From a virus (taxonomy: Duplodnaviria; Heunggongvirae; Uroviricota; Caudoviricetes): DNA of 64,000 nt. The notes beneath the pieces were generated by a model. That model saw only the letters and a program-made list of their open reading frames with translations. It ran no database searches and was not told the origin of the DNA. Location: IMG/VR virus record IMGVR_UViG_3300029828_000006, positions 27,904-91,903 of that record. One strand, 5' to 3'. Position 1 is the stretch's first letter. Every line of letters starts with the position of its first letter. Below are positions 35,125 to 55,121 of the stretch, piece after piece. The position numbers and the translations under genes are program-made.

Positions 35125-35931
35125 CTATTGTTCCTTTTTGGTGTTCTTTTGGAGCGCATCGATAACGCCTTGTGGCATGATTAAACTGATTGCCGGACTC
35201 ATTACTGCATCATCCAGTAGAGAACCAGTTAACGTGATGGCGACAGCGTTCTCTAAACCTTTGGTTGCCTGAGTGGTTGACGTTTTAATGCGACCTGTAA
35301 GGGTTACGACACTCTCACTTGCTGAGTTAATTTCGGAGAGTAAAACTTCGGCGGCTGCCACTGCTTCCCGTAAAGCATCAATTTCATCCTGAGTAATGAC
35401 TGGAGCCTGAGCGCCCCCAGCACCACCCTGTCCACCATTGCTATCACCACCACCAGCACTTCCGGCAGCTTCTATTTTTGCGTTAATGGCGTTCATGGCG
35501 GTTTTCAGAGCATCAAGTTTTAGCGCCGCCAATGCGTCCGTTAATGAATGCGGTATGGAAACATTACCCATCCCCTCCACGAGAGCGAATGCTGGCGTGG
35601 GTGCCAGTTCATTACCTTTTGCGTGGCATTCCCAGCCAATCTTCATCTGTAACAGCTCTGATGGCTTGGTGTATGGGGAAAGAGAATCAGCCAGTAATGA
35701 AGACGCTTTGCTGGCCTCATTGAGCTGTTCAGAAAAGCCAAGCAATTGAGTAGTCCAGGCCGAAACAGAATCAGGATAGGCTTTATCGGCGTGAACTATT
35801 CCCTGTATGGCGCTGGCGAGCGATGAGGCTTTTACAGAAGCTGCCCGGCTTATGGTTATAGATTCTGGTGTAGAGATACCGGCATCTGACAGAATTTTGA
35901 AGGCTTTAACTTCACCTATTGAATCAAGCAT
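35125..35931 (-). CDS. hypothetical protein with Gly-rich linker
   Basis: Likely start MLDSIG at 35931 (ATGA overlap with PAAR-like gene); AGSAGGGDSNGGQGGAGGA linker. Confidence 0.3.
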   Translation of the reverse strand: MLDSIGEVKAFKILSDAGISTPESITISRAASVKASSLASAIQGIVHADKAYPDSVSAWTTQLLGFSEQLNEASKASSLLADSLSPYTKPSELLQMKIGWECHAKGNELAPTPAFALVEGMGNVSIPHSLTDALAALKLDALKTAMNAINAKIEAAGSAGGGDSNGGQGGAGGAQAPVITQDEIDALREAVAAAEVLLSEINSASESVVTLTGRIKTSTTQATKGLENAVAITLTGSLLDDAVMSPAISLIMPQGVIDALQKNTKKEQ

Positions 35932-36215
35932 TATGCAACCTGAAAAATATCCTCGCCGTTGGCGATAACAGAACCACAAGAAAGCGGATCGCCTACACAG
36001 ACAACTCCCTTTCCACCTATCGAAAACCATACTCGCGTCGATACAGCTGCCCCTGGATGTGCACTGTTACCGTCAGTGTGACTGGGAAACATGGCACCAT
36101 CTACAACAATTGGCTTACCGTTAACGGTGAACCAGGGAACAGTTTCAGCTACCAGTCGCGGCGGAAATCCTCCGTGACCAGAACAAAGGGTGTCGCTGGT
36201 GGCTATTGCGCTCAT
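35931..36215 (-). CDS. PAAR-like spike-tip protein
   Basis: 94 aa, Cys/His/Gly-rich PAAR-type pattern (CSGHGG...VNGKPIVVDGAM...CVGDPLSCGSVIANG). Confidence 0.5.
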   Translation of the reverse strand: MSAIATSDTLCSGHGGFPPRLVAETVPWFTVNGKPIVVDGAMFPSHTDGNSAHPGAAVSTRVWFSIGGKGVVCVGDPLSCGSVIANGEDIFQVA

Positions 36216-36239
36216 TCTTCACCTCCTGGTTATCCTCCT

Positions 36240-36457
36240 ATTGTCATCACTTTGTTATTTCGTCATTCAAACTGAGAGTTAAATTTCGGAATATTTTTGT
36301 ATTCTCAATTCATTCTCAAATAAATCTCACTGTCAGACCATCATTCATTGGGTGATTAAGATATTCTCAAAGTGAACTCAATAATCACTCTTTTTTATCT
36401 CTTTTGGTGTGGATTTTTGGGTGCTTCTCTTTTAAAATTGCATTTTGATTCTCAAAT
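36240..36457. repeat. parC-like centromere with repeated ATTCTCAA units upstream of parM
   Basis: Units at ~36310, 36323, 36370, 36447 in AT-rich region. Confidence 0.5.
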
Positions 36458-36481
36458 GTGTCTCAGAAGTGGAGCAAGAAG

Positions 36482-37438
36482 ATGCGCATTTTTATCGATG
36501 ATGGTTCAACCAATATCAAAATGCTGTGGGAGCACGACGGGGAAACTCGCACTCACATCAGCCCTAACAGCTTTAAGCGCGGATGGTCAGCAACATTTGG
36601 TGCGGGCAAGCCGTTTAACTATGTCATTGACGACGAAAAGTATTCGTATGATTTGATCTCGCCAGATGTTCTGCCGACGAATAACGTGGAATGGCAATAC
36701 AGCCCGCTTAACGTCCTGGCTGTTCACCATGCCCTGCTGACAAGTGGCATTGAGCCGCAGGAAGTAGAAATTGTGGTCACGCTGCCTCTGGCGGAGTTTT
36801 ACGACGACGACGCGCAATACAATCTCGATAACATCGAGCGCAAGAAAGCCAGCCTTATGCGCCCCGTCACGCTGAATAAAGGCAATGTGTTCACGATTAA
36901 GAAAGTTACGGTACGCCCGGAGTCTATTCCGGCAGGAATTGGCCTGTGCGACAATCTGAACCCTGCCCATTCTGTTCTTATCGTCGATTTGGGTGGAACT
37001 ACCCTTGATGTTTCAATGGTCGCCGGGCAAATGACGGCAGTTTCCCGTGTTTTTGGCGATTCGAATCTTGGCGTCTCTCTGGTTACCAGGGAAGTAAGGC
37101 AAGCACTTGCCAGAGCCAATACCGAAACGTCAAATTACAATGTCGATCAGCTCATTATTAACCGCCACGATGAAGATTATCTGAACGACAATATCAATGA
37201 CCCATCAGCGATTGGTGATGTGAAAAAGGCCATTGCCGCAAGCATTGATCGTCTGCGTACCCGCGTTCTTGATGTGATTGGCGACTTTAAAGGATATACG
37301 CATGTCATGGTGATCGGTGGTGGCGCACCGCTGGTGGCAGATGCAATTCGCGAGCAAGTTAATATTCGTGATGACCGTTTCTTCGTGGCGGATGACCCGC
37401 AACTTGCTCTTGTTCATGGCCTGAAAGCAATCGGTTAA
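36482..37438 (+). CDS. parM: actin-like plasmid segregation ATPase ParM/StbA
   Basis: MRIFIDDGSTNIK...ISPNSFKR...WQYS..NV.AVHHALLTSG...DLGGTTLD...GYTHVMVIGGGA matches R1 ParM recalled from memory; SD GGAG before ATG 36482. Confidence 0.85.
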   Translation: MRIFIDDGSTNIKMLWEHDGETRTHISPNSFKRGWSATFGAGKPFNYVIDDEKYSYDLISPDVLPTNNVEWQYSPLNVLAVHHALLTSGIEPQEVEIVVTLPLAEFYDDDAQYNLDNIERKKASLMRPVTLNKGNVFTIKKVTVRPESIPAGIGLCDNLNPAHSVLIVDLGGTTLDVSMVAGQMTAVSRVFGDSNLGVSLVTREVRQALARANTETSNYNVDQLIINRHDEDYLNDNINDPSAIGDVKKAIAASIDRLRTRVLDVIGDFKGYTHVMVIGGGAPLVADAIREQVNIRDDRFFVADDPQLALVHGLKAIG

Positions 37439-37445
37439 CGAGGTA

Positions 37446-37790
37446 ATGTCCATGTCTCAGGAACGTAAGAAAGTGATGATTTATCTTCGCCCAGAGGCTT
37501 ATGCCAATGAAAAGGCGGCGAGCGAGAAGATAAAAAAACATAGCGATATGGCAAGAACCGCATTGTTGGCAGGGCTTGCGCTGGGAGAAGTCGATAGCAG
37601 GCTTCCAGGATTACTGGCTTCCCTGCTGACCGAAGATAATAATCCGGAGCTGATCCGAAAAATGCTGGCATCCTTCCTGGAACTACCAGCTGCGGTTGAG
37701 GAGCGCCCTGCCTCCATTGAGCCAGTGAAGGAGCAAGTTGTTGCCAAAAGCGCGTCGGCGCGCAATCTGGCTGACTCTCTACCTGATTGA
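37446..37790 (+). CDS. parR: ParR/StbB-like partition adaptor
   Basis: 114 aa immediately after parM; RTALLAGLALG motif. Confidence 0.6.
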   Translation: MSMSQERKKVMIYLRPEAYANEKAASEKIKKHSDMARTALLAGLALGEVDSRLPGLLASLLTEDNNPELIRKMLASFLELPAAVEERPASIEPVKEQVVAKSASARNLADSLPD

Positions 37791-37808
37791 CAGAAGATGT
37801 GCTGGTTT

Positions 37809-37835
37809 AAGGCTGCAAATTGCAGCCTTTTTTAT
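37809..37835. terminator. rho-independent terminator after parR
   Basis: aaggctgcaaattgcagcctttttt. Confidence 0.6.
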
Positions 37836-37843
37836 GCCTTAAT

Positions 37844-37917
37844 GGTGCCTAATTGGTGTTAATCTGGCACCAGTTAGGTGCTGTTATGGTGCAGTTTTGT
37901 ATCTGGTTCCAATTTGG
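37844..37917. repeat. centromere-like GGTGC(A)CC repeat cluster upstream of parA
   Basis: ggtgcctaattggtg / tggcaccagttaggtgc / ggtgcag / ggttccaatttgg. Confidence 0.45.
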
Positions 37918-38077
37918 GGCTGATTTCGTGTTAAATAGGATGCAATATAAGGTGTATTTGGTCTGATTGATGTTATACTTTGCCAAACATTCATGACTCC
38001 ATTATAGAGCCTGTCCCGCATCAAAAAGGCTCTTATCTGGAACCGTTTTGATACCAAAATCACACCGAGGAACGGAT

Positions 38078-38719
38078 ATGATTATATTGGTAGTCAGCCA
38101 AAAAGGTGGCTGTGGAAAATCAACCACAAGCGTAAACATCTGTGCGGAGCTTGCCCGCGCAAATAAGGATGTAGTGTTACTAGATGCAGACAAGCAAGGA
38201 ACAGCTGCCCGCTGGGCAGCTGACCGTAACACGGCAGAGGTTTCTCCTGTTATTCATTGTGTCCAGAAGTTTGGTAATATTCGAGAAACACTTCTCGATC
38301 TGGATAAGCGTTATGAATTTGTAGTTGTTGATACAGCCGGGCGCGATAGCAAAGAGATGCGTACAGGCATAACCGCTGCAGATATTGTGTTGGTCCCATT
38401 CAGACCATCTCAACCAGATTTAGACACGCTGGCACACTTTGTTGAAGTGTTTGAAGAGGCTTTGGACCTGATGCCTAATCCTAGCATTAAGGCGTTCGCA
38501 GTCTTAACAATGGCCCCATCCAATCCGGTTGTGAATGAAACCAATGAGGCCAAAGAGTACCTGGCTGAATATCCGCAACTGAAGTTGCTGAAAACCATCA
38601 TTCGTGATCGTAAGGTTTACCGCGATTGCATGGCTGAAGGGAAGGGCGTTGTTGAGATGGACAACGGGAAAGCTAAAGGTGAAATCCAGATGTTGGTTAA
38701 GGAGTTATTAAGTGATTAA
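38078..38719 (+). CDS. parA: ParA/Soj-family partition ATPase (small type Ib)
   Basis: Walker A VVSQKGGCGKST; ATG 38078 with SD GAGGA preferred over track TTG 38048. Confidence 0.85.
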   Translation: MIILVVSQKGGCGKSTTSVNICAELARANKDVVLLDADKQGTAARWAADRNTAEVSPVIHCVQKFGNIRETLLDLDKRYEFVVVDTAGRDSKEMRTGITAADIVLVPFRPSQPDLDTLAHFVEVFEEALDLMPNPSIKAFAVLTMAPSNPVVNETNEAKEYLAEYPQLKLLKTIIRDRKVYRDCMAEGKGVVEMDNGKAKGEIQMLVKELLSD

Positions 38720-38999
38720 GCCTCGTAAATCGGTAAAAGCCCCCGAAGTAAAAGACCCCGATCTTGAACGCCGAATTGAGGATTTTGCCAGTAAGGCTGA
38801 TTTGGTGCCAGGTGAGCAACCAGAAGACAACAAAGTGCTCGATAAGGACGCTCCACGTGATTTTAAATCTATTCGTGTTGGTTTCAATGAATACGAGTAC
38901 CAGGTACTTGATGCGTTAAGTAAAAAGCATAATCGCAGCAAATTGAATATGATCCGCCATGCTATCCTCATGTTAGCGGAGTCTGAGGAAGCAAAATAA
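38712..38999 (+). CDS. ParG-like small partition protein
   Basis: 95 aa, GTG start overlapping parA stop; C-terminal RHH-like segment. Confidence 0.5.
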   Translation: MIKPRKSVKAPEVKDPDLERRIEDFASKADLVPGEQPEDNKVLDKDAPRDFKSIRVGFNEYEYQVLDALSKKHNRSKLNMIRHAILMLAESEEAK

Positions 39000-39039
39000 A
39001 GTCTTTCAGGTTGGTTTTAGAACTTAAAAAGTCTTGAAC

Positions 39040-39110
39040 CAAAGGTGCACCAATACACCACTAATTTGGTGCACCTTTACATCCTTTTTGGTTCCAATTG
39101 TGTACCATTT
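39040..39110. repeat. palindromic centromere-like repeat downstream of parG (GGTGCACCAA / TTGGTGCACC)
   Basis: Inverted repeat 39044-39076 plus ggttccaattg at 39090. Confidence 0.45.
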
Positions 39111-39267
39111 GTCATTAATTTACTTATGCGCAAAAGTGGGCTTCATGAAAAAGCTCATTATTGAAATAACGATAGAAAGCAATTTCTAATCAACTAGTGG
39201 TTGTCAGCCTATTCGGCTTATAAGATCATACGCTGTTATACGTAGTTTACGCTTTGAGGAATCCACA

Positions 39268-40929
39268 ATGAGTGAGGCAGAAGCCCGCCCGACTAACTTT
39301 ATTCGTCAGATCATCGATGAAGATCTGGCCAGTGGTAAGCACACCACAGTACATACCCGTTTCCCGCCGGAACCGAATGGCTATCTGCATATTGGTCATG
39401 CGAAATCTATCTGCCTGAACTTCGGGATCGCCCAGGACTATAAAGGCCAGTGCAACCTGCGTTTCGACGACACTAACCCGGTAAAAGAAGATATCGAGTA
39501 TGTTGAGTCGATCAAAAACGACGTTGAGTGGTTAGGTTTTCACTGGTCTGGTAACGTCCGTTACTCCTCCGATTATTTTGATCAGCTCCACGCCTATGCG
39601 ATCGAACTGATAAATAAAGGCCTGGCGTATGTTGATGAACTGACACCGGAACAGATCCGCGAATACCGCGGCACCCTGACGCAGCCGGGTAAAAACAGCC
39701 CGTACCGCGACCGCAGCGTTGAAGAGAACCTGGCGCTGTTCGAAAAAATGCGTACCGGTGGTTTTGAAGAAGGTAAAGCCTGCCTGCGTGCGAAAATCGA
39801 CATGGCGTCGCCATTTATCGTAATGCGCGATCCGGTGCTGTACCGCATTAAATTTGCTGAACACCACCAGACTGGCAACAAGTGGTGCATCTACCCGATG
39901 TACGACTTCACCCATTGCATCAGCGATGCGCTGGAAGGTATTACGCACTCTCTGTGTACGCTTGAGTTCCAGGACAACCGCCGCCTGTACGACTGGGTGC
40001 TGGACAACATCACCATTCCTGTTCACCCGCGCCAGTACGAATTCTCGCGCCTGAATCTGGAATACACCGTGATGTCCAAGCGTAAGCTGAACCTGCTGGT
40101 GACCGACAAGCACGTTGAAGGCTGGGATGACCCGCGTATGCCGACCATTTCCGGTCTGCGTCGTCGTGGTTACACTGCGGCTTCTATTCGTGAGTTCTGC
40201 AAACGCATCGGCGTGACCAAGCAGGACAACACCATTGAAATGGCGTCGCTGGAATCCTGCATCCGTGAAGATCTCAACGAAAATGCCCCGCGCGCAATGG
40301 CGGTTATCGATCCGGTGAAACTGGTTATCGAAAACTACCAGGGCGAAGGCGAAATGGTCACCATGCCGAACCATCCGAACAAACCGGAAATGGGTAGCCG
40401 TCAGGTGCCGTTTAGCGGTGAGATTTGGATCGACCGCGCCGATTTCCGCGAAGAAGCTAACAAGCAGTACAAACGTCTGGTGCTGGGTAAAGAAGTGCGT
40501 CTGCGTAATGCTTACGTCATTAAGGCTGAACGCGTGGAGAAAGATGCCGAAGGCAATATCACCACCATCTTCTGTACTTATGACGCCGACACCTTAAGCA
40601 AAGATCCGGCAGATGGTCGTAAAGTGAAAGGCGTTATTCACTGGGTGAGCGCGGCACATGCGCTGCCGGTTGAAATCCGCCTGTACGATCGTCTGTTCAG
40701 CGTGCCGAACCCAGGTGCTGCGGATGATTTCCTGTCGGTGATTAACCCGGAATCGCTGGTGATCAAACAGGGTTTTGCTGAACCGTCGCTGAAAGAAGCG
40801 GTAGCGGGTAAAGCATTCCAGTTTGAGCGTGAAGGTTATTTCTGCCTCGACAGCCGCCATTCTACGGCGGAAAAACCGGTATTTAACCGCACCGTTGGGC
40901 TGCGTGATACCTGGGCGAAGTTAGGTTAA
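39268..40929 (+). CDS. glnS: glutaminyl-tRNA synthetase
   Basis: 553 aa with class I HIGH ([13 protein letters not shown]) and VMSKR (KMSKS-type) motifs; matches E. coli GlnRS recalled from memory almost throughout. Confidence 0.95.
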
Positions 40930-40953: not shown

Positions 40954-40979
40954 AAAACGCCGCTACTGCGGCGTTTTTT
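40954..40979. terminator. bidirectional terminator between glnS and Dam-methylase gene
   Basis: aaaacgccgctactgcggcgtttttt. Confidence 0.65.
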
Positions 40980-41883
40980 ACTTCATTATTGCAATTATAT
41001 CGTTAGCAACTACACGTTTTGACGCCTTGCAGGACACCGACCGTCTGGCTGCCATATGATGTACTTTAAACCCGTTTCCTTCATATAGTTCACGGATGTT
41101 TGGCGCACCACTATTTGTTATCACTACCTTAGCGCCGCGCTGGTGGGCTTCCACCAATAGAGATACCAGCCGTTTCTGTTCGTCGAAACGGAAGCTATTT
41201 CCTGAATAACTGGTAAACCCTTCTGTATCCGGCAGCGGTTCATACGGCGGATCGCAAAAAATCACATCGCCTTCACCAGCCGCCTCGATGACGCCAGCAA
41301 AGTCACCTGATACAAAGGACGTGTTTTTGAGGACGTCATCAGCCAAAAATGCCTCCATCTCTGCATGTGGGAAGTAGGGCGCTTTGTATTTGCCATACCC
41401 CACGTTGAACTCGCCATTTTGGTTGTACCGCGTTACGCCATTAAAACAGTGCCGATTAAGGTACAAAAAGGCGGCAGCATGATGTAGCTGGTCATACTTT
41501 CCTCTGTTAAATGCCTCACGCACTTCGAGGTAAGCGTCAGCGTTGTTGTAATTTTGGAAAAAACTATATGACAGCGTGACGAGCGAATGTCCTTCTCGCT
41601 GCAATGTCTGATAGAAGTTAATCAGGTCACCGTTAATATCATTAAGCAGGTTGTGGCAAAATCCTGCATTCGTAAATACGGAACCGCCACCAACGAATGG
41701 TTCTATTAACCGCTTACCGTGTGGTAGATGCTCAAGCACTGTAGGCAATTCTGAGAATTTACCACCTACCCATTTGAATATCGGACGCTCATATTCATCC
41801 GGAGTCCGAATGGTGCGCATATAGCTAATTTCAGCCATCGTATCCTGTTTTTCTATGGCTATGCTTGCTATAGATTTACTCAT
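40978..41883 (-). CDS. Dam-family DNA adenine (N6) methyltransferase
   Basis: FKWVGGK...EPFVGGGSVF and DPPY motifs; ATG 41883 overlaps stop of upstream gene (ATGAGTAA). Confidence 0.85.
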   Translation of the reverse strand: MSKSIASIAIEKQDTMAEISYMRTIRTPDEYERPIFKWVGGKFSELPTVLEHLPHGKRLIEPFVGGGSVFTNAGFCHNLLNDINGDLINFYQTLQREGHSLVTLSYSFFQNYNNADAYLEVREAFNRGKYDQLHHAAAFLYLNRHCFNGVTRYNQNGEFNVGYGKYKAPYFPHAEMEAFLADDVLKNTSFVSGDFAGVIEAAGEGDVIFCDPPYEPLPDTEGFTSYSGNSFRFDEQKRLVSLLVEAHQRGAKVVITNSGAPNIRELYEGNGFKVHHMAARRSVSCKASKRVVANDIIAIMK

Positions 41884-42526
41884 AGAGCACCCCCTTATTC
41901 GCTTCGAAAACTGCCTTTGCGAATCCATGTGGAGTAGCACTTCGAAAATTAGCCCTGTCAGGCCCTGGTGGCGCGGCATGGATTCTGTTATCTGGCTTGC
42001 CTAATGATTCGTCCATTAGGGCATCAGGCATGACAAAGCCCTGGCCGCTCCAGAGGCATGTTTTTTTGGTGTAGTTATCTTCCTGACAATATGCAGTGAA
42101 GAAGTAAGGGTGAAAGATGTGATCTGGCTTACGCCAGAATGTCGATATTTTGCTGACCGGATTTTCAATCATGTACGGACAACCGATCATCTTTGCAATG
42201 TCATAACACTGCCAGACAACCTGCATTGCTTTGAACTGGAAAAACGGATCTTTGTCAGCCTTATGCGCAAACCAGCGCGCACCGGAAACAGCAAGGTCCG
42301 TGCACGGCGGAAAACCAGCTAAAAACACAATACGTTGTAAATTATTTCGGAGAAAAGCATAAACTTCATCACTATCGATAATCGCACTGATACGTGTCAG
42401 AACTGCGCCTGATTGCATCAGCTCATCTCTGGTCTCTGCGTGTTGTGGATCGACGATAACAGCATCTATACCATGCTCCAGCCAGGGGGCGACCATTTTC
42501 CCCGTGAAATCACAAAGACTCACCAT
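41876..42526 (-). CDS. divergent C5-cytosine methyltransferase-like protein
   Basis: GFPPC..AVSGAR (PCQ-type motif IV) and ENP (ENV-type motif VI); likely start MVSLCDF at 42526, 14 nt after rdgC stop. Confidence 0.5.
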   Translation of the reverse strand: MVSLCDFTGKMVAPWLEHGIDAVIVDPQHAETRDELMQSGAVLTRISAIIDSDEVYAFLRNNLQRIVFLAGFPPCTDLAVSGARWFAHKADKDPFFQFKAMQVVWQCYDIAKMIGCPYMIENPVSKISTFWRKPDHIFHPYFFTAYCQEDNYTKKTCLWSGQGFVMPDALMDESLGKPDNRIHAAPPGPDRANFRSATPHGFAKAVFEANKGVLYE

Positions 42527-42539
42527 CAGAGGTCTATTG

Positions 42540-43445
42540 TTAACGTTCTGCTTCACCACCAACGGCCTCCACCAGCGAAGTGAACATCGCGGATAATTCA
42601 GCAGTAAACAGGATAAAGTCAGCGTCAAATCGTTGCGCAACATCCTCTCGATCAATATCGTCGTTCTGGTCGTACAATTCGTCGCTGAACGACAAAGCCT
42701 TGATACTCATATCGTCATTCAGTCTGAAAAATGCACGGTCTTGCCAGTTAACCGCAACTGTGGTTGCAACCTTACCAGCTTCTATATGACTCATGATCTC
42801 GTCGGATAGCAGGTCCACTTTTTTGCAGCGGACCGCGCCGCCATCATCAAGCAATGCTTTTAAGGTCGCTTCCTCACCGGCACGGAAACCGTTCGGGAAG
42901 CCATTTTTAATCCAGCCAGTGATGGTCAGTTCTAATGGGTCTTTCGGAGAGAAGGGGACAACGGGCAAGCTGCCAAGCGATTTCCGTAACAAAGCCAGCT
43001 GATCCTCTGCTTTTTTAGCACTGCTGGCCTCGACAAAAACCAGATGATTGCTTCGGTCTATCAGGATTTTAGCGACTGATTTTCTCGTGAAAGCACGAGG
43101 AAGCAGAGAGTGAAGCACTTCATCCTTCAGCGAATCTTTTTCAGTCTTCTTCAGCTTTCTGTCTTGCTCTTCTTCAAGTGTCAGGATTTTTTTCTGTAAC
43201 TCTTCTTTGAGCACTTGAGAGGGTAGGATTTTTTCCTCTCGTTTATGCTGTATCAGAAGAAAACCCTGGTATTCATGGGTGAGGTTGTCACCAAGAACGG
43301 AGGTCCAACCAGCTTTAGCCATATCCTGAGAACCGCATGGGGTAAACACAAACTTGCTAAGGGCTGCATTTACTTCTGCAGTATCCCAGCTAACTTCGCG
43401 TGAAAGACGATAGATGAAGATATTTTTGAAAGCGACTGATCTCAT
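42540..43445 (-). CDS. rdgC: RdgC-like recombination-associated protein
   Basis: 301 aa; [12 protein letters not shown]...[11 protein letters not shown]...[21 protein letters not shown]...RFDADFIL resembles E. coli RdgC (from memory). Confidence 0.75.
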
Positions 43446-43504: not shown

Positions 43505-44158
43505 CTATCCTTTCTTGAAATCGAAGTTGCCAGCAGTGGCCTGAAAGGTTCCTCCTGCCTTGAAAGCTATGTCTCCGTTAGCGGTGACAGCTATATTTTC
43601 CCCATTAACATTGATGTTGTTGGCTGATTTGACGTTAACACTCCCTCCTGCATTCACGATTACATCAGCCGGACCAATGATATATATCTGCCCGGACTCA
43701 TTCATGCCAATCCTTGAGCCTGCTGCCGTATTGGCAATTTCATAGCCGCCACCAGCAGTTCGTACTTCAAGAATATTGTTGCGGTGAATAACGAAGTCTT
43801 TCGTTGCTGAGATTTGGGGGCGGGGAGGTGCTCCATCTACTTCCGGCGGCGTCCAGCCGTTGCCTTTGCCAGATGCTTCTGGTGCAACGTTTGGAATTCC
43901 TCCCGGTGCATCCTGAGCGGCACCAACTATCATTGGGCGTCTGGTGTCTATTCGACCGTTAACATCTAAATAAGGAAACTCTACCCAGACCAGGTCACCT
44001 TTGACTGTAGGTACAAAAGCGTTCCCGATGGGTAACTGGTATTCCGCCCAGGGTAGATCGTCATCAGGAACGCCATTCCAGTCAGGTAAAACACGGACTT
44101 GAGCACGCATAAGCCCTGCCGGGTGCACAGTTCCAACAATTTGCGCTCTACGCTTCAT
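43505..44158 (-). CDS. baseplate spike protein (gpV/VgrG-like OB fold plus beta-helix)
   Basis: 217 aa; RAQVRVLPDWNGV...VPTVKGDLVWVEF...RPMIVGA then repetitive VNxGGxVNV beta-helical tail. Confidence 0.55.
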   Translation of the reverse strand: MKRRAQIVGTVHPAGLMRAQVRVLPDWNGVPDDDLPWAEYQLPIGNAFVPTVKGDLVWVEFPYLDVNGRIDTRRPMIVGAAQDAPGGIPNVAPEASGKGNGWTPPEVDGAPPRPQISATKDFVIHRNNILEVRTAGGGYEIANTAAGSRIGMNESGQIYIIGPADVIVNAGGSVNVKSANNINVNGENIAVTANGDIAFKAGGTFQATAGNFDFKKG

Positions 44159-54323: not shown

Positions 54324-54389
54324 ATTGGCAGCCTCCTTTGACTAAGTTAAGGAGCTACCGCGTGAGGTTCCAATCTCAATGGCGGTAGC

Positions 54390-54480
54390 ACTGACTGGGT
54401 TGGAACTACCGGCGTCAAAGGGAACCGGCCTGCCTTTCGGCAGCCCAGCCAGCACTACCATTGATCTCTGAGCTAAACGC
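54390..54480 (-). ncRNA. candidate c4-type antisense RNA element in second icd/ant leader
   Basis: + strand 54414-54422 gtcaaaggg is reverse complement of RBS-region cctttgac at 54335-54342. Confidence 0.25.
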
Positions 54481-55121
54481 TAAGTATGGCTGTGCGATGG
54501 CATGACACAAAAAAAGACGCGTTCGGCGTCTGTGTCGCCTTTGACATTATCCGGGGTTCCAATCCCGGCACCCGTTTTTCTAAGGTGCCGTAGAAATATA
54601 CCCCACGATAATGCCAGGGCGCAACAGTCAGTATTTTATGCTTTGGCGGATTTCTTCCGGGCTTGCTTGCAGGCGTAGGCCATTGCTTTAGCTTTCACTT
54701 CATCCAGCTTCCCGGTGATCACTTCTTTTCCGAGAGTGACAAACCAGTCATAGCAACCGCCAGTAATGTTCTTGATTTGAAAGTTGAGGTAGCGAACAGT
54801 CATTTTGACACCCCCAGCGCGAGTAAAGAATGCAGATTATCGCGTGAGTGGTGGACGACGAGTGATGGGAAAAGACTGTAGTTGTTCATAGTGTAGTGAC
54901 TCCTTGCTTTCGGAGCCGCCATCGACTGTTCCACGGTCTGGTGGCGGCGCAATAAAGGCTGGAACACCGTGAGTCAACGGGGGCTTTTCAGCCACCTATA
55001 TTGCACCGCCATAGGTATGGCGGCGGCAATAATACGAAAAACTAAACAGTTTGTCTCAAAAAGTTGACCGGTGTGCCAATCGGTAGTGAATGTACATCGG
55101 TGAAATTCACAATTCAACTTA

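Follow-up and report, generated by a model that had tools for sequence, protein, structure and literature searches.

Two partition cassettes in tandem in a phage D6-like phage-plasmid, with a candidate ribbon-helix-helix partner of ParA

The 64-kb stretch of DNA analysed here (the window) carries two unrelated partition systems in tandem, one of type II and one of type Ib, each with its own repeat array, as had been proposed in a first-pass annotation. The locus is very probably the plasmid-maintenance module of a D6-like phage-plasmid, built from two independent, functional cassettes. The window is 100% identical to the E. coli plasmid pF16EC0589-1 and 98% identical to phage D6, and its sequence identifies it as a D6-like phage-plasmid, that is, a prophage in plasmid form. 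Four intact genes follow each other in the same orientation, parM, parR, parA and an open reading frame (ORF) for a protein of 95 residues, with glnS next to them from 39268.

The GenBank record of phage D6 already gives orf58 and orf59 as StbA and StbB, and orf60 as ‘possible ParA’. New here is the recognition of the 95-residue protein, labelled hypothetical in every annotation we examined, as a predicted ribbon-helix-helix (RHH) protein and candidate centromere-binding partner of ParA; together with the arrays we located, it would complete the annotation of the second system. The combination of type II and type Ib in tandem is real but fairly ordinary: the double par locus of pB171 is a precedent, and type II and RHH type I systems have been reported together in 971 PLSDB plasmids. 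The stable inheritance of D6-like phage-plasmids relies on modules of this kind, and our findings leave the current understanding of partition mechanisms unchanged.

The type II cassette

The product of parM (stbA; 36482..37438, + strand) is an actin-like segregation ATPase of 318 residues. It matches the Pfam families StbA_N (1.7e-69, 233 bits) and ParM_N (3.3e-55, 187 bits), both well over their cut-offs, aligns over its full length with R1 ParM structures (E 1e-111) and is 43% identical to pB171-type ParM. Starting 14 bp past the parM stop, parR (stbB; 37452..37790, + strand) encodes a centromere-binding adaptor of 112 residues; its reading frame is open from 37446 and a GAGG ribosome-binding site suits the ATG at 37452. 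ParR matches Pfam Plasmid_stab_B (3.5e-11; 43 bits, cut-off 25), the pB171 ParR structure 2jd3 (E 1e-6) and a PHROG partition protein (8.6e-60), and has 32% identity to pB171-type ParR.

Upstream of parM lies a putative parC-like centromere and operator (36301..36469, + strand), comprising nine iterons phased at 11 bp with the core (T/A)CTC(A/T). They form three clusters, of three (36301-36333), four (36363-36406) and two (36448-36469), and flank a putative promoter region (TAAAAT, 36433-36438). Of the five + strand copies of ATTCTCAA in the 64 kb, four (36301, 36312, 36363, 36448) are found within 155 bp upstream of parM. On both strands of the whole window the total is 8 against 3.25 expected, so that the signal resides in the clustering and the 11-bp phasing rather than in the count. 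The density of TCTC-type motifs has its single window-wide maximum at the iteron region, and TCTCA pairs 11 bp apart occur only there. The layout of the iterons is kept in all variants and their flanking bases shift with the ParR allele.

The domain and structure matches and the clustered, phased copies of ATTCTCAA thus bear out the earlier reading of an actin-type ParM/ParR locus with an upstream repeat centromere, and with its ParM domains, adjacent ParR and phased upstream repeats the cassette classes, by sequence, as a type II ParMRC system. It resembles parMRC (stbAB) of R1/NR1 in its strongly similar ParM, in a ParR of the StbB family and in upstream 11-bp direct iterons that flank the promoter region. 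Yet parC of R1/NR1 has 5+5 iterons, two sets of five 11-bp iterons around the promoter in R1 (PMC2241845), whereas we find nine, arranged 3+4+2, of different sequence and around a promoter whose position is putative. In the mechanism we propose, ParR dimers would occupy the nine iterons through their N-terminal RHH domain and also repress the parM promoter, and the ParR-parC complex would cap actin-like ParM filaments, by which sister plasmids would be pushed apart.

An intrinsic terminator found by a terminator scan (37809..37837, + strand), with a 9-bp stem AAGGCTGCA/TGCAGCCTT and a T run, divides this operon from the next and is kept in every D6-like variant, which makes parMR and the parA operon separate transcription units.

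The type Ib cassette and the candidate partner of ParA

Downstream of the terminator, parA (38078..38719, + strand) encodes a small ATPase, 213 residues long, with a deviant Walker A motif, KGGCGKST, at residues 9-16 and without an N-terminal DNA-binding domain. It matches the Pfam families AAA_31, CbiA and MipZ and aligns over its full length with the TP228 ParF structure (E 1e-18) and, at 43% identity, with pB171-type par2 ParA. In a full-length alignment to the NCBIfam model ‘ParA family partition ATPase’ (NF041546) it scored 162.6 bits and missed the cut-off of 180, a near miss that we read as membership of a related subfamily rather than as an NF041546 equivalog.

The ORF of the 95-residue protein (D6 orf61; 38712..38999, + strand) begins with a GTG, shares 8 bp with the end of parA and is translationally coupled to it. 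A word-based homologue search with the protein recovered close relatives only, whereas an exhaustive profile search reached further. With nine near-identical sequences AlphaFold2 gave a poor model (pLDDT 57); with an alignment of 81 sequences the model had a pLDDT of 86, rising above 90 in a C-terminal domain of one strand and two helices. The predicted secondary structure consists of a helix at residues 16-29 and a C-terminal RHH fold (strand ~52-58, helices 60-73 and 77-92), preceded by a basic N-terminus (MIKPRK) in which K3 and R5 are conserved. The best Foldseek matches of the model were to ParG (top), Arc, ORF56 and CopG, all of them RHH proteins, at E >0.5. The protein itself matched no Pfam family, but RHH families of Pfam were matched by 23-32 of the 81 family members, the family profile found HP0222 and CopG in the PDB (E 0.03-0.1), where a sequence search with the protein gave no match, and the best phage-family match was a PHROG Arc-like repressor (1.8e-4). 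Since single structural and profile matches are not significant (E 0.03-1), the assignment rests on their unanimity, from which we predict an RHH protein with a flexible basic N-terminal tail.

The first-pass annotation had called this locus ParG-like. This describes the architecture and fold of the 95-residue protein well but does not extend to family membership, as neither it nor any of its 81 relatives matched the Pfam ParG model (PF09274; E up to 1). Like ParF/ParG/parH of TP228, the cassette would combine a small ParA with an RHH partner that has a flexible N-terminal tail; it differs in its repeat motif, in having arrays upstream as well as downstream of the operon and in a partner outside the ParG family.

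These arrays are built from GGTRC repeats. The upstream array, a putative centromere and operator (37841..37967, + strand), contains some 11 direct repeats of the TTTGGTGC type, spaced by 11 bp and divided between two sub-arrays that are half a turn out of step. It reaches the -35 position of an extended -10 promoter (TGTTATACT, 37971-37979), which is inferred from its conservation. Its GGTGC-type pentamers have an exact spacing of 10-12 bp at 37844, 37855, 37867 (inverted), 37877 and 37888 and continue in degenerate form to ~37965. Three inverted repeats with 11-bp spacing (38039..38066, - strand) lie downstream of this promoter and ahead of the parA start: GGAACC, GATACC and ACACC, which are GGTGT, GGTAT and GGTTC on the - strand. 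The downstream array (39036..39106) comprises GAACC, GGTGCACC, ACACC, GGTGCACC, GGTTCC and GTACC, overlapping GGTRC repeats of the + and - strands spaced by ~11-12 bp.

In the upstream region a phased three-repeat pattern had 2 matches, against 0 in 100 shuffles. Only the upstream and downstream regions reach 9 matches to the degenerate GGTRC-type pattern per ~105-125 bp in the 64 kb, and the density of such repeats in the two arrays is about five times the background. The earlier claim of palindromic repeats on both sides is therefore to be narrowed: phased repeats do flank the parA operon, but the exact palindrome GGTGCACC occurs twice in the 64-kb window (39044 and 39068), both times downstream of the 95-residue ORF, and has no exact copy upstream of parA. 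A third cluster of GGTGC/GCACC, at 43827-43956, lies unphased inside a baseplate gene and was dismissed as chance.

Multi-copy phased arrays on either side of the operon are a signature of type Ib centromeres and are known from pB171, pSM19035 and pESBL (PMC7602700). A small ParA, a predicted RHH partner and flanking repeats place the cassette in type Ib, with partition as its predicted function. The type Ib parAB of pESBL (IncI), with arrays of the octamer GATAACAA, offers a parallel in that its ParB, too, was earlier annotated as hypothetical; its repeat sequence differs from GGTRC.

In the mechanism we propose, the RHH protein would bind the 11-bp-phased arrays either side of the parA operon and, as the upstream array overlaps the promoter, would regulate its own synthesis. 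Its basic N-terminal tail (K3/R5, helix 16-29) would contact nucleoid-bound ParA and stimulate its ATPase, and this stimulation would lead to plasmid copies being spaced over the nucleoid. We infer binding, autoregulation, ATPase stimulation and the share of each in stability; the literature, apart from the D6 genome paper (Gilcrease and Casjens 2018), which was not covered, yielded no experiment on either D6-like cassette.

The pair of ParA and RHH protein might instead be primarily a regulator, for example of glnS or of methylase genes, or serve the phage life cycle as a device for positioning or exclusion. Many RHH proteins act simply as repressors, as the match to an Arc-like repressor recalls, ParA-type ATPases position many cargos, and the downstream array precedes the glnS promoter region by ~160 bp. 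We nevertheless consider such a primary role improbable, given that the cassette and both its arrays are present in relatives that lack glnS, that the arrays carry the centromere signature described above, that ParA is so similar to the par2 ParA of pB171, which has been studied experimentally (PMC4270457), and that homologous pairs adjoin replication genes in ordinary plasmids. In plasmids of Serratia, Aeromonas, Arsenophonus and Acinetobacter, homologues of parA and the small ORF are the sole partition-type genes annotated within the few kb examined, and in two of these plasmids the pair adjoins the replication initiator gene.

The neighbour itself, glnS (39268..40929, + strand; Pfam tRNA-synt_1c), lies outside the partition locus and shares ~97% identity with the chromosomal gene of E. 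coli. It is a variable cargo gene, which 12 of the 20 related loci carry; relatives without it have a longer downstream array of about 10 repeats, followed by a terminator. The association of the downstream repeats with the glnS junction, which had been suggested before, is thus coincidental.

Conservation, selection and allele mosaicism

The search for related loci used a narrow alignment; a broad alignment had no conserved stretch. Each of the 20 D6-like loci we examined has both cassettes in the same order, as do about 120 plasmids; nearly all of a sample of 60 from 123 plasmids have the four genes annotated. The ratio dN/dS is 0.01-0.10 for parM, 0.03-0.14 for parA and 0.05-0.13 for the gene of the RHH protein; across the four genes it spans 0.01-0.18, and stays this low in comparisons with dS above 1. 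Both cassettes are under strong purifying selection.

These data bear on the possibility that one cassette is a decaying or silent remnant and that a single system segregates the prophage. A single-base deletion in parM is present in two of the 20 loci (pCUVET20-PYO4.3 and IMGVR_UViG_2740892439_000006) and, if real, would make ParMRC dispensable for keeping the plasmid; at least two of the sampled plasmids have no ParA in their gene tables; and of the two systems of SCP1 only one matters in laboratory culture (PMC13245405). However, both parM deletions fall in short runs of a single base and may reflect sequencing error, as may the missing ParA, 18 of the 20 loci and most of the ~120 plasmids have all four genes intact, and the low dN/dS at saturating synonymous divergence holds for both cassettes, whose catalytic motifs are present and whose array layout is kept across alleles. 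Inactivity of one system, which would have spoken against the first-pass reading, was accordingly not what we found, and we give a remnant slightly less credit still than a primarily regulatory pair. One plasmid, pMUB-MIN14-1, was considered as a one-system intermediate and rejected, its record being unreliable, with many fragmented genes.

Two functional cassettes remain our preferred reading, and each of them occurs as deeply diverged alleles that assort independently. Identities between alleles are 58-64% for ParR, with altered iteron flanks, and 76-93% for ParA and the N-terminal tail of the RHH protein, and diverged alleles (dS >1) are found on near-identical backbones. GGTRC arrays persist across diverged alleles and in distant homologues from plasmids, and the repeats co-vary with the binding protein: homologues with the RHH β-strand FK(S/A)IRV keep GGTRC/GTAYC repeats at 11 bp, while the Acinetobacter homologue has an altered strand, FKTHTIPM, and different repeats. 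The family of the 95-residue protein comprises about 124 clusters at 50% identity.

Selection for extra stability through two systems, as suggested initially, is plausible. More tentatively, and with the odds rather against it, the cassettes may go beyond redundancy, with incompatibility among co-infecting relatives selecting for new specificities and with the 95-residue protein representing an unannotated family of RHH-ParB proteins that recognise 11-bp-phased GGTRC arrays. If this were true, an element with two types of system could go on segregating when a resident relative blocks one of them. The mosaic of alleles is a natural setting in which to study how competing phage-plasmids come to differ in partition specificity, and the arrays and the 95-residue protein are concrete targets for incompatibility or curing experiments.

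Comparison with pB171 and origin of the arrangement

We compared the locus with the double par locus of pB171 (par1, parMR; par2, parAB; with parC1 and parC2) by way of a close relative, the EAF plasmid pMAR2. There, as here, the type II system directly adjoins a type Ib operon that has arrays upstream and downstream and a small centromere-binding protein (PMC4270457, PMC7602700). In pB171, however, the operons are divergent and share parC1, whereas in the window they are in tandem on one strand, with a terminator between them and separate, unrelated arrays. The repeats are hexamers of the TCAYA type in pB171 and GGTRC with 11-bp phasing here, and the carrier is a virulence plasmid of conjugative type in one case and a tailed phage-plasmid in the other. 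Between the 95-residue protein and pB171 ParB we detected no relation (BLASTP E 0.14; hhalign probability 1%). The two have a similar basic N-terminus, MVK/MIK, which is a lead only.

A cointegrate history had also been suggested. That a ParM-type plasmid fused with a plasmid or phage-plasmid of the ParA type and left the double locus as a scar is the least probable of the alternatives. The cassettes are indeed unrelated, each comes complete with a promoter, arrays and a terminator of its own, and their independently assorting alleles indicate that they move as modules. But RepB, 11 kb away, is the only replicon gene annotated in the surrounding ~30 kb, the locus is flanked by phage structural genes and no transposase or resolution site was noted beside the cassettes; the arrangement is fixed throughout the D6-like lineage; and homologous recombination that swaps cassettes between related phage-plasmids suffices for the mosaicism. 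The locus resembles two exchangeable cassettes instead.

D6-like phage-plasmids are also found in Salmonella and Shigella; in E. coli, the glnS-linked version is present in 75 of 5,426 complete genomes (~1.4%).

Gene content and the type II cassette

The first-pass annotation placed two partition systems back to back in this part of the genome, and the locus indeed consists of four co-oriented genes, all intact in the window: parM (36482-37438) and parR (37452-37790), followed by parA (38078-38719) and an ORF of 95 codons (38712-38999) with a GTG start and an 8-bp overlap with the parA stop. Identity over this 3-kb region is 100% with the E. coli plasmid pF16EC0589-1 and 98% with D6, a tailed phage related to P1 whose prophage is a plasmid. 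Matches also occur in 123 plasmids from Escherichia, Salmonella, Shigella and Klebsiella, with few exceptions non-mobilizable and ∼90 kb in size, and in a sample of 60 of these the four genes are annotated in nearly all. The D6 GenBank record lists them as orf58 (‘StbA type’), orf59 (‘StbB type’), orf60 (‘possible ParA partitioning function’) and orf61 (‘hypothetical’), and in D6-like Salmonella plasmids the systems have been lumped together as ‘a partition system represented by cop, parA, stbB and parM’ (PMC6799933).

Phage genes flank the locus: a PAAR-domain homologue of upfC lies to one side, and the other side has glnS and a gene for a Dam methylase. The plasmid RepB gene is 11 kb away. 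Twenty D6-like loci were compared, from phage D6, a plasmid and 18 IMG/VR contigs, and all have the order PAAR, parM, parR, parA, 95-residue ORF. The homologue of P1 upfC (35931-36215, minus strand) matches the PAAR domain in Pfam slightly below the cut-off (E 8e-6), and its label ‘alanine racemase’ in the identical plasmid record looks like a misannotation. Elsewhere in the window, two C4 antisense RNA genes on the minus strand (54378-54588 and 1116-1321), one adjoining an isrK-like RNA and the other its a1/b1 target element, represent two copies of P1-type immunity (immI-like) control elements.

In Pfam, ParM hits the two ParM domains and ParR hits Plasmid_stab_B; among known structures, ParM aligns to those of R1 ParM (E 1e-111) and ParR to that of pB171 ParR. 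The 155 bp 5′ of parM contain four plus-strand copies of ATTCTCAA, against a single further copy on the plus strand elsewhere in the window. In an 11-bp register, nine iterons sharing the core (T/A)CTC(A/T) can be read here, in clusters of three, four and two. Within the 64 kb this region is the unique maximum for motifs of this type and the only place with TCTCA pairs at 11-bp spacing. The 11-bp iterons are reminiscent of R1 parC, where two sets of five surround the promoter and each iteron is bound by one ParR dimer (PMC2241845). A strong terminator (37809-37837), kept in every relative, ends the type II operon.

The type Ib cassette

ParA (213 residues) has a deviant Walker A box and matches TP228 ParF (E 1e-18) as well as, over its full length and with 43% identity, the par2 ParA of the pB171-related plasmid pMAR2. 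Its score on the NCBIfam partition-ATPase model, 162.6 bits, is slightly below the cut-off of 180.

The 95-residue protein had no sequence match in Pfam, NCBIfam or PDB. An exhaustive profile search yielded a small family that forms 124 clusters at 50% identity, most of its proteins being 65-100 residues long. Among 81 aligned members, 32 matched NikA-like, 23 RHH_1 and others further ribbon-helix-helix (RHH) families, but none matched ParG. Residues 45-87 of the family profile align to HP0222 and CopG (E 0.03-0.1), and PHROGs gives an Arc-like repressor (1.8e-4). The AlphaFold2 model built from the 81-sequence alignment (pLDDT 86 overall, >90 at residues 50-92) has helices at 16-29, 60-73 and 77-92 and an extended segment at 52-58. 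Its best Foldseek matches in PDB were ParG, Arc, ORF56, CopG and TacA1, all RHH proteins; their TM-scores, normalised to the target, were 0.6-0.8, and none of the E-values was significant by itself. We conclude that the protein has a ParG-like architecture, with a flexible basic N-terminus and a C-terminal RHH domain, while standing outside the ParG family; the earlier designation ‘ParG-like’ thus applies to architecture and not to family membership. K3, R5 and F25 are invariant in eight aligned homologues, and M1, R5 and F25 nearly so across the 81 members. The analogy with other small ParBs, among them ParG, makes the basic N-terminal tip a candidate ATPase-stimulating motif.

The parA locus had been described as flanked on both sides by palindromic repeats. 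Repeats do occur on both flanks, but the palindrome GGTGCACC is confined to the downstream side, with two copies in the window (39044 and 39068), both 3′ of the 95-residue ORF, and none 5′ of parA. The upstream flank instead carries GGTGC-type pentamers at 37844, 37855, 37867 (inverted), 37877 and 37888, degenerate copies running on to ∼37965, and three inverted copies at 38039-38066. A phased three-repeat pattern matched twice 5′ of parA, compared to no match in 100 shuffles, and in the whole window a degenerate pattern reached nine matches per ∼105-125 bp only at the two flanks of the parA operon.

The downstream repeats had also been tied to the junction with glnS (39268-40929), which shares ∼97% identity with its counterpart on the E. 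coli chromosome. Plasmid-borne glnS is variable cargo, present in 12 of the 20 D6-like loci and absent from 8; 5,426 complete E. coli genomes contained 81 such plasmid copies. In glnS-less relatives, some ten GRTRC repeats in 11-bp phase come directly after the small ORF, and these are followed by a terminator and then the methylase gene, whereas glnS-bearing relatives have a shorter array with two GGTGCACC palindromes. Since the glnS-less loci keep a longer array of their own, the array belongs to the partition cassette and its position at the glnS junction is incidental. The plasmid glnS has kept ∼70 bp of the sequence that natively precedes it (39199-39260). Directly 3′ of glnS, the gene for a Dam-type adenine methylase overlaps that for a putative cytosine methylase (40978-42655, minus strand); identity of the Dam gene among relatives ranges from 72% to 99%, which marks another mosaic segment.

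Conservation and mosaic alleles

One of the two systems might be an inactive remnant. Pairwise dN/dS of each relative against the window was 0.01-0.10 for parM, 0.04-0.18 for parR, 0.03-0.14 for parA and 0.05-0.13 for the small ORF, and these low values persist at a synonymous divergence of about 1-2, which excludes decaying remnants. Two of the 20 loci have frameshifting 1-bp deletions in short homopolymers of parM, L003 at 3389 (∼36627 in the window) and L014 at ∼2293 (∼37002), reducing TT to T and CCC to CC, respectively; they may represent real loss or sequencing error. No such lesions were seen in parA or the small ORF among the 20 loci. Judged from sequence, both systems are very probably active. 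In the D6-like plasmid pMUB-MIN14-1 (NZ_CP069647.1), many genes are fragmented (rdgC, for example, is split up, and parM and parA lack annotation), which suggests a low-quality assembly rather than biology.

Each cassette exists as deeply diverged alleles (dS about 1-2), which assort independently on otherwise similar backbones. In four loci (L015, L016, L019, L020), ParR is only 58-64% identical to that of the window, with changes and a 5-residue insertion in its N-terminal DNA-binding part, and the iterons read TGTCTC(T/A) instead of ATTCTCA. Yet their type Ib cassette is nearly identical to the window's (ParA 99.5%, dS 0.02, in L015 and L016; 96%, dS about 0.37, in L019 and L020). Four others (L003, L022-L024) have parM and parR 95-100% identical to the window's, with ParA at 85-93% and the small ORF at 76-78% (dS about 1.2 or more). 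Differences between small-ORF alleles sit in the N-terminal tail, whereas the RHH strand FKSIRV(G/S)FN is constant, and GGTRC-type repeats are retained with every allele. In the comparison of window positions 36216-39000 to L015-L024, the recombination breakpoints coincide with the stop codon of parR and with the 3′ end of the small ORF.

Precedents and plasmid homologues

The closest precedent is the double locus of pB171, in which par1 (parMR) is combined with par2 (parAB) and parC1 and parC2 flank par2 (PMC4270457). In the related pMAR2 the two operons diverge around a shared region, whereas the D6-like locus is in tandem with a terminator in between; further, the small ParB of the pB171 type is unrelated in sequence to the 95-residue protein and the repeats differ. 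According to a recent survey, multiple partition systems occur in about 19% of the PLSDB plasmids having any, and 971 accessions combine type I RHH and type II systems (PMC13245405). Arrays on both sides of a type Ib operon have been described for pB171, pSM19035 and pESBL (PMC7602700). The tandem locus is therefore a genuine case of an already known kind of arrangement. Three points appear to be new: D6 orf61 can be assigned as the RHH partner, the two arrays that go with it are defined, and the cassettes show allele mosaicism. We found no evidence for the proposed cointegrate origin. Overall, the first-pass observation is partly confirmed and its interpretation partly supported.

The pair of parA and small ORF is also found in plasmids of Serratia, Rahnella, Arsenophonus, Aeromonas, Marinobacter and Acinetobacter, directly adjoining the replication initiator gene in Arsenophonus paIh6 and Acinetobacter pACICU1. 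GGTRC/GTAYC-type repeats accompany it; they flank the operon on either side in Serratia and Arsenophonus, with the clearest 11-bp phasing in the latter, and lie only upstream in Aeromonas. The Acinetobacter protein has a different RHH strand, FKTHTIPM, and different repeats, of AACTAAT type, so strand and repeats co-vary, as predicted for an RHH centromere protein that reads DNA with its β-strand. In pACICU1 these repeats, not GGTRC, follow the distant homologue of the small protein at 1735-1800, which may represent a natural switch of specificity in this family.
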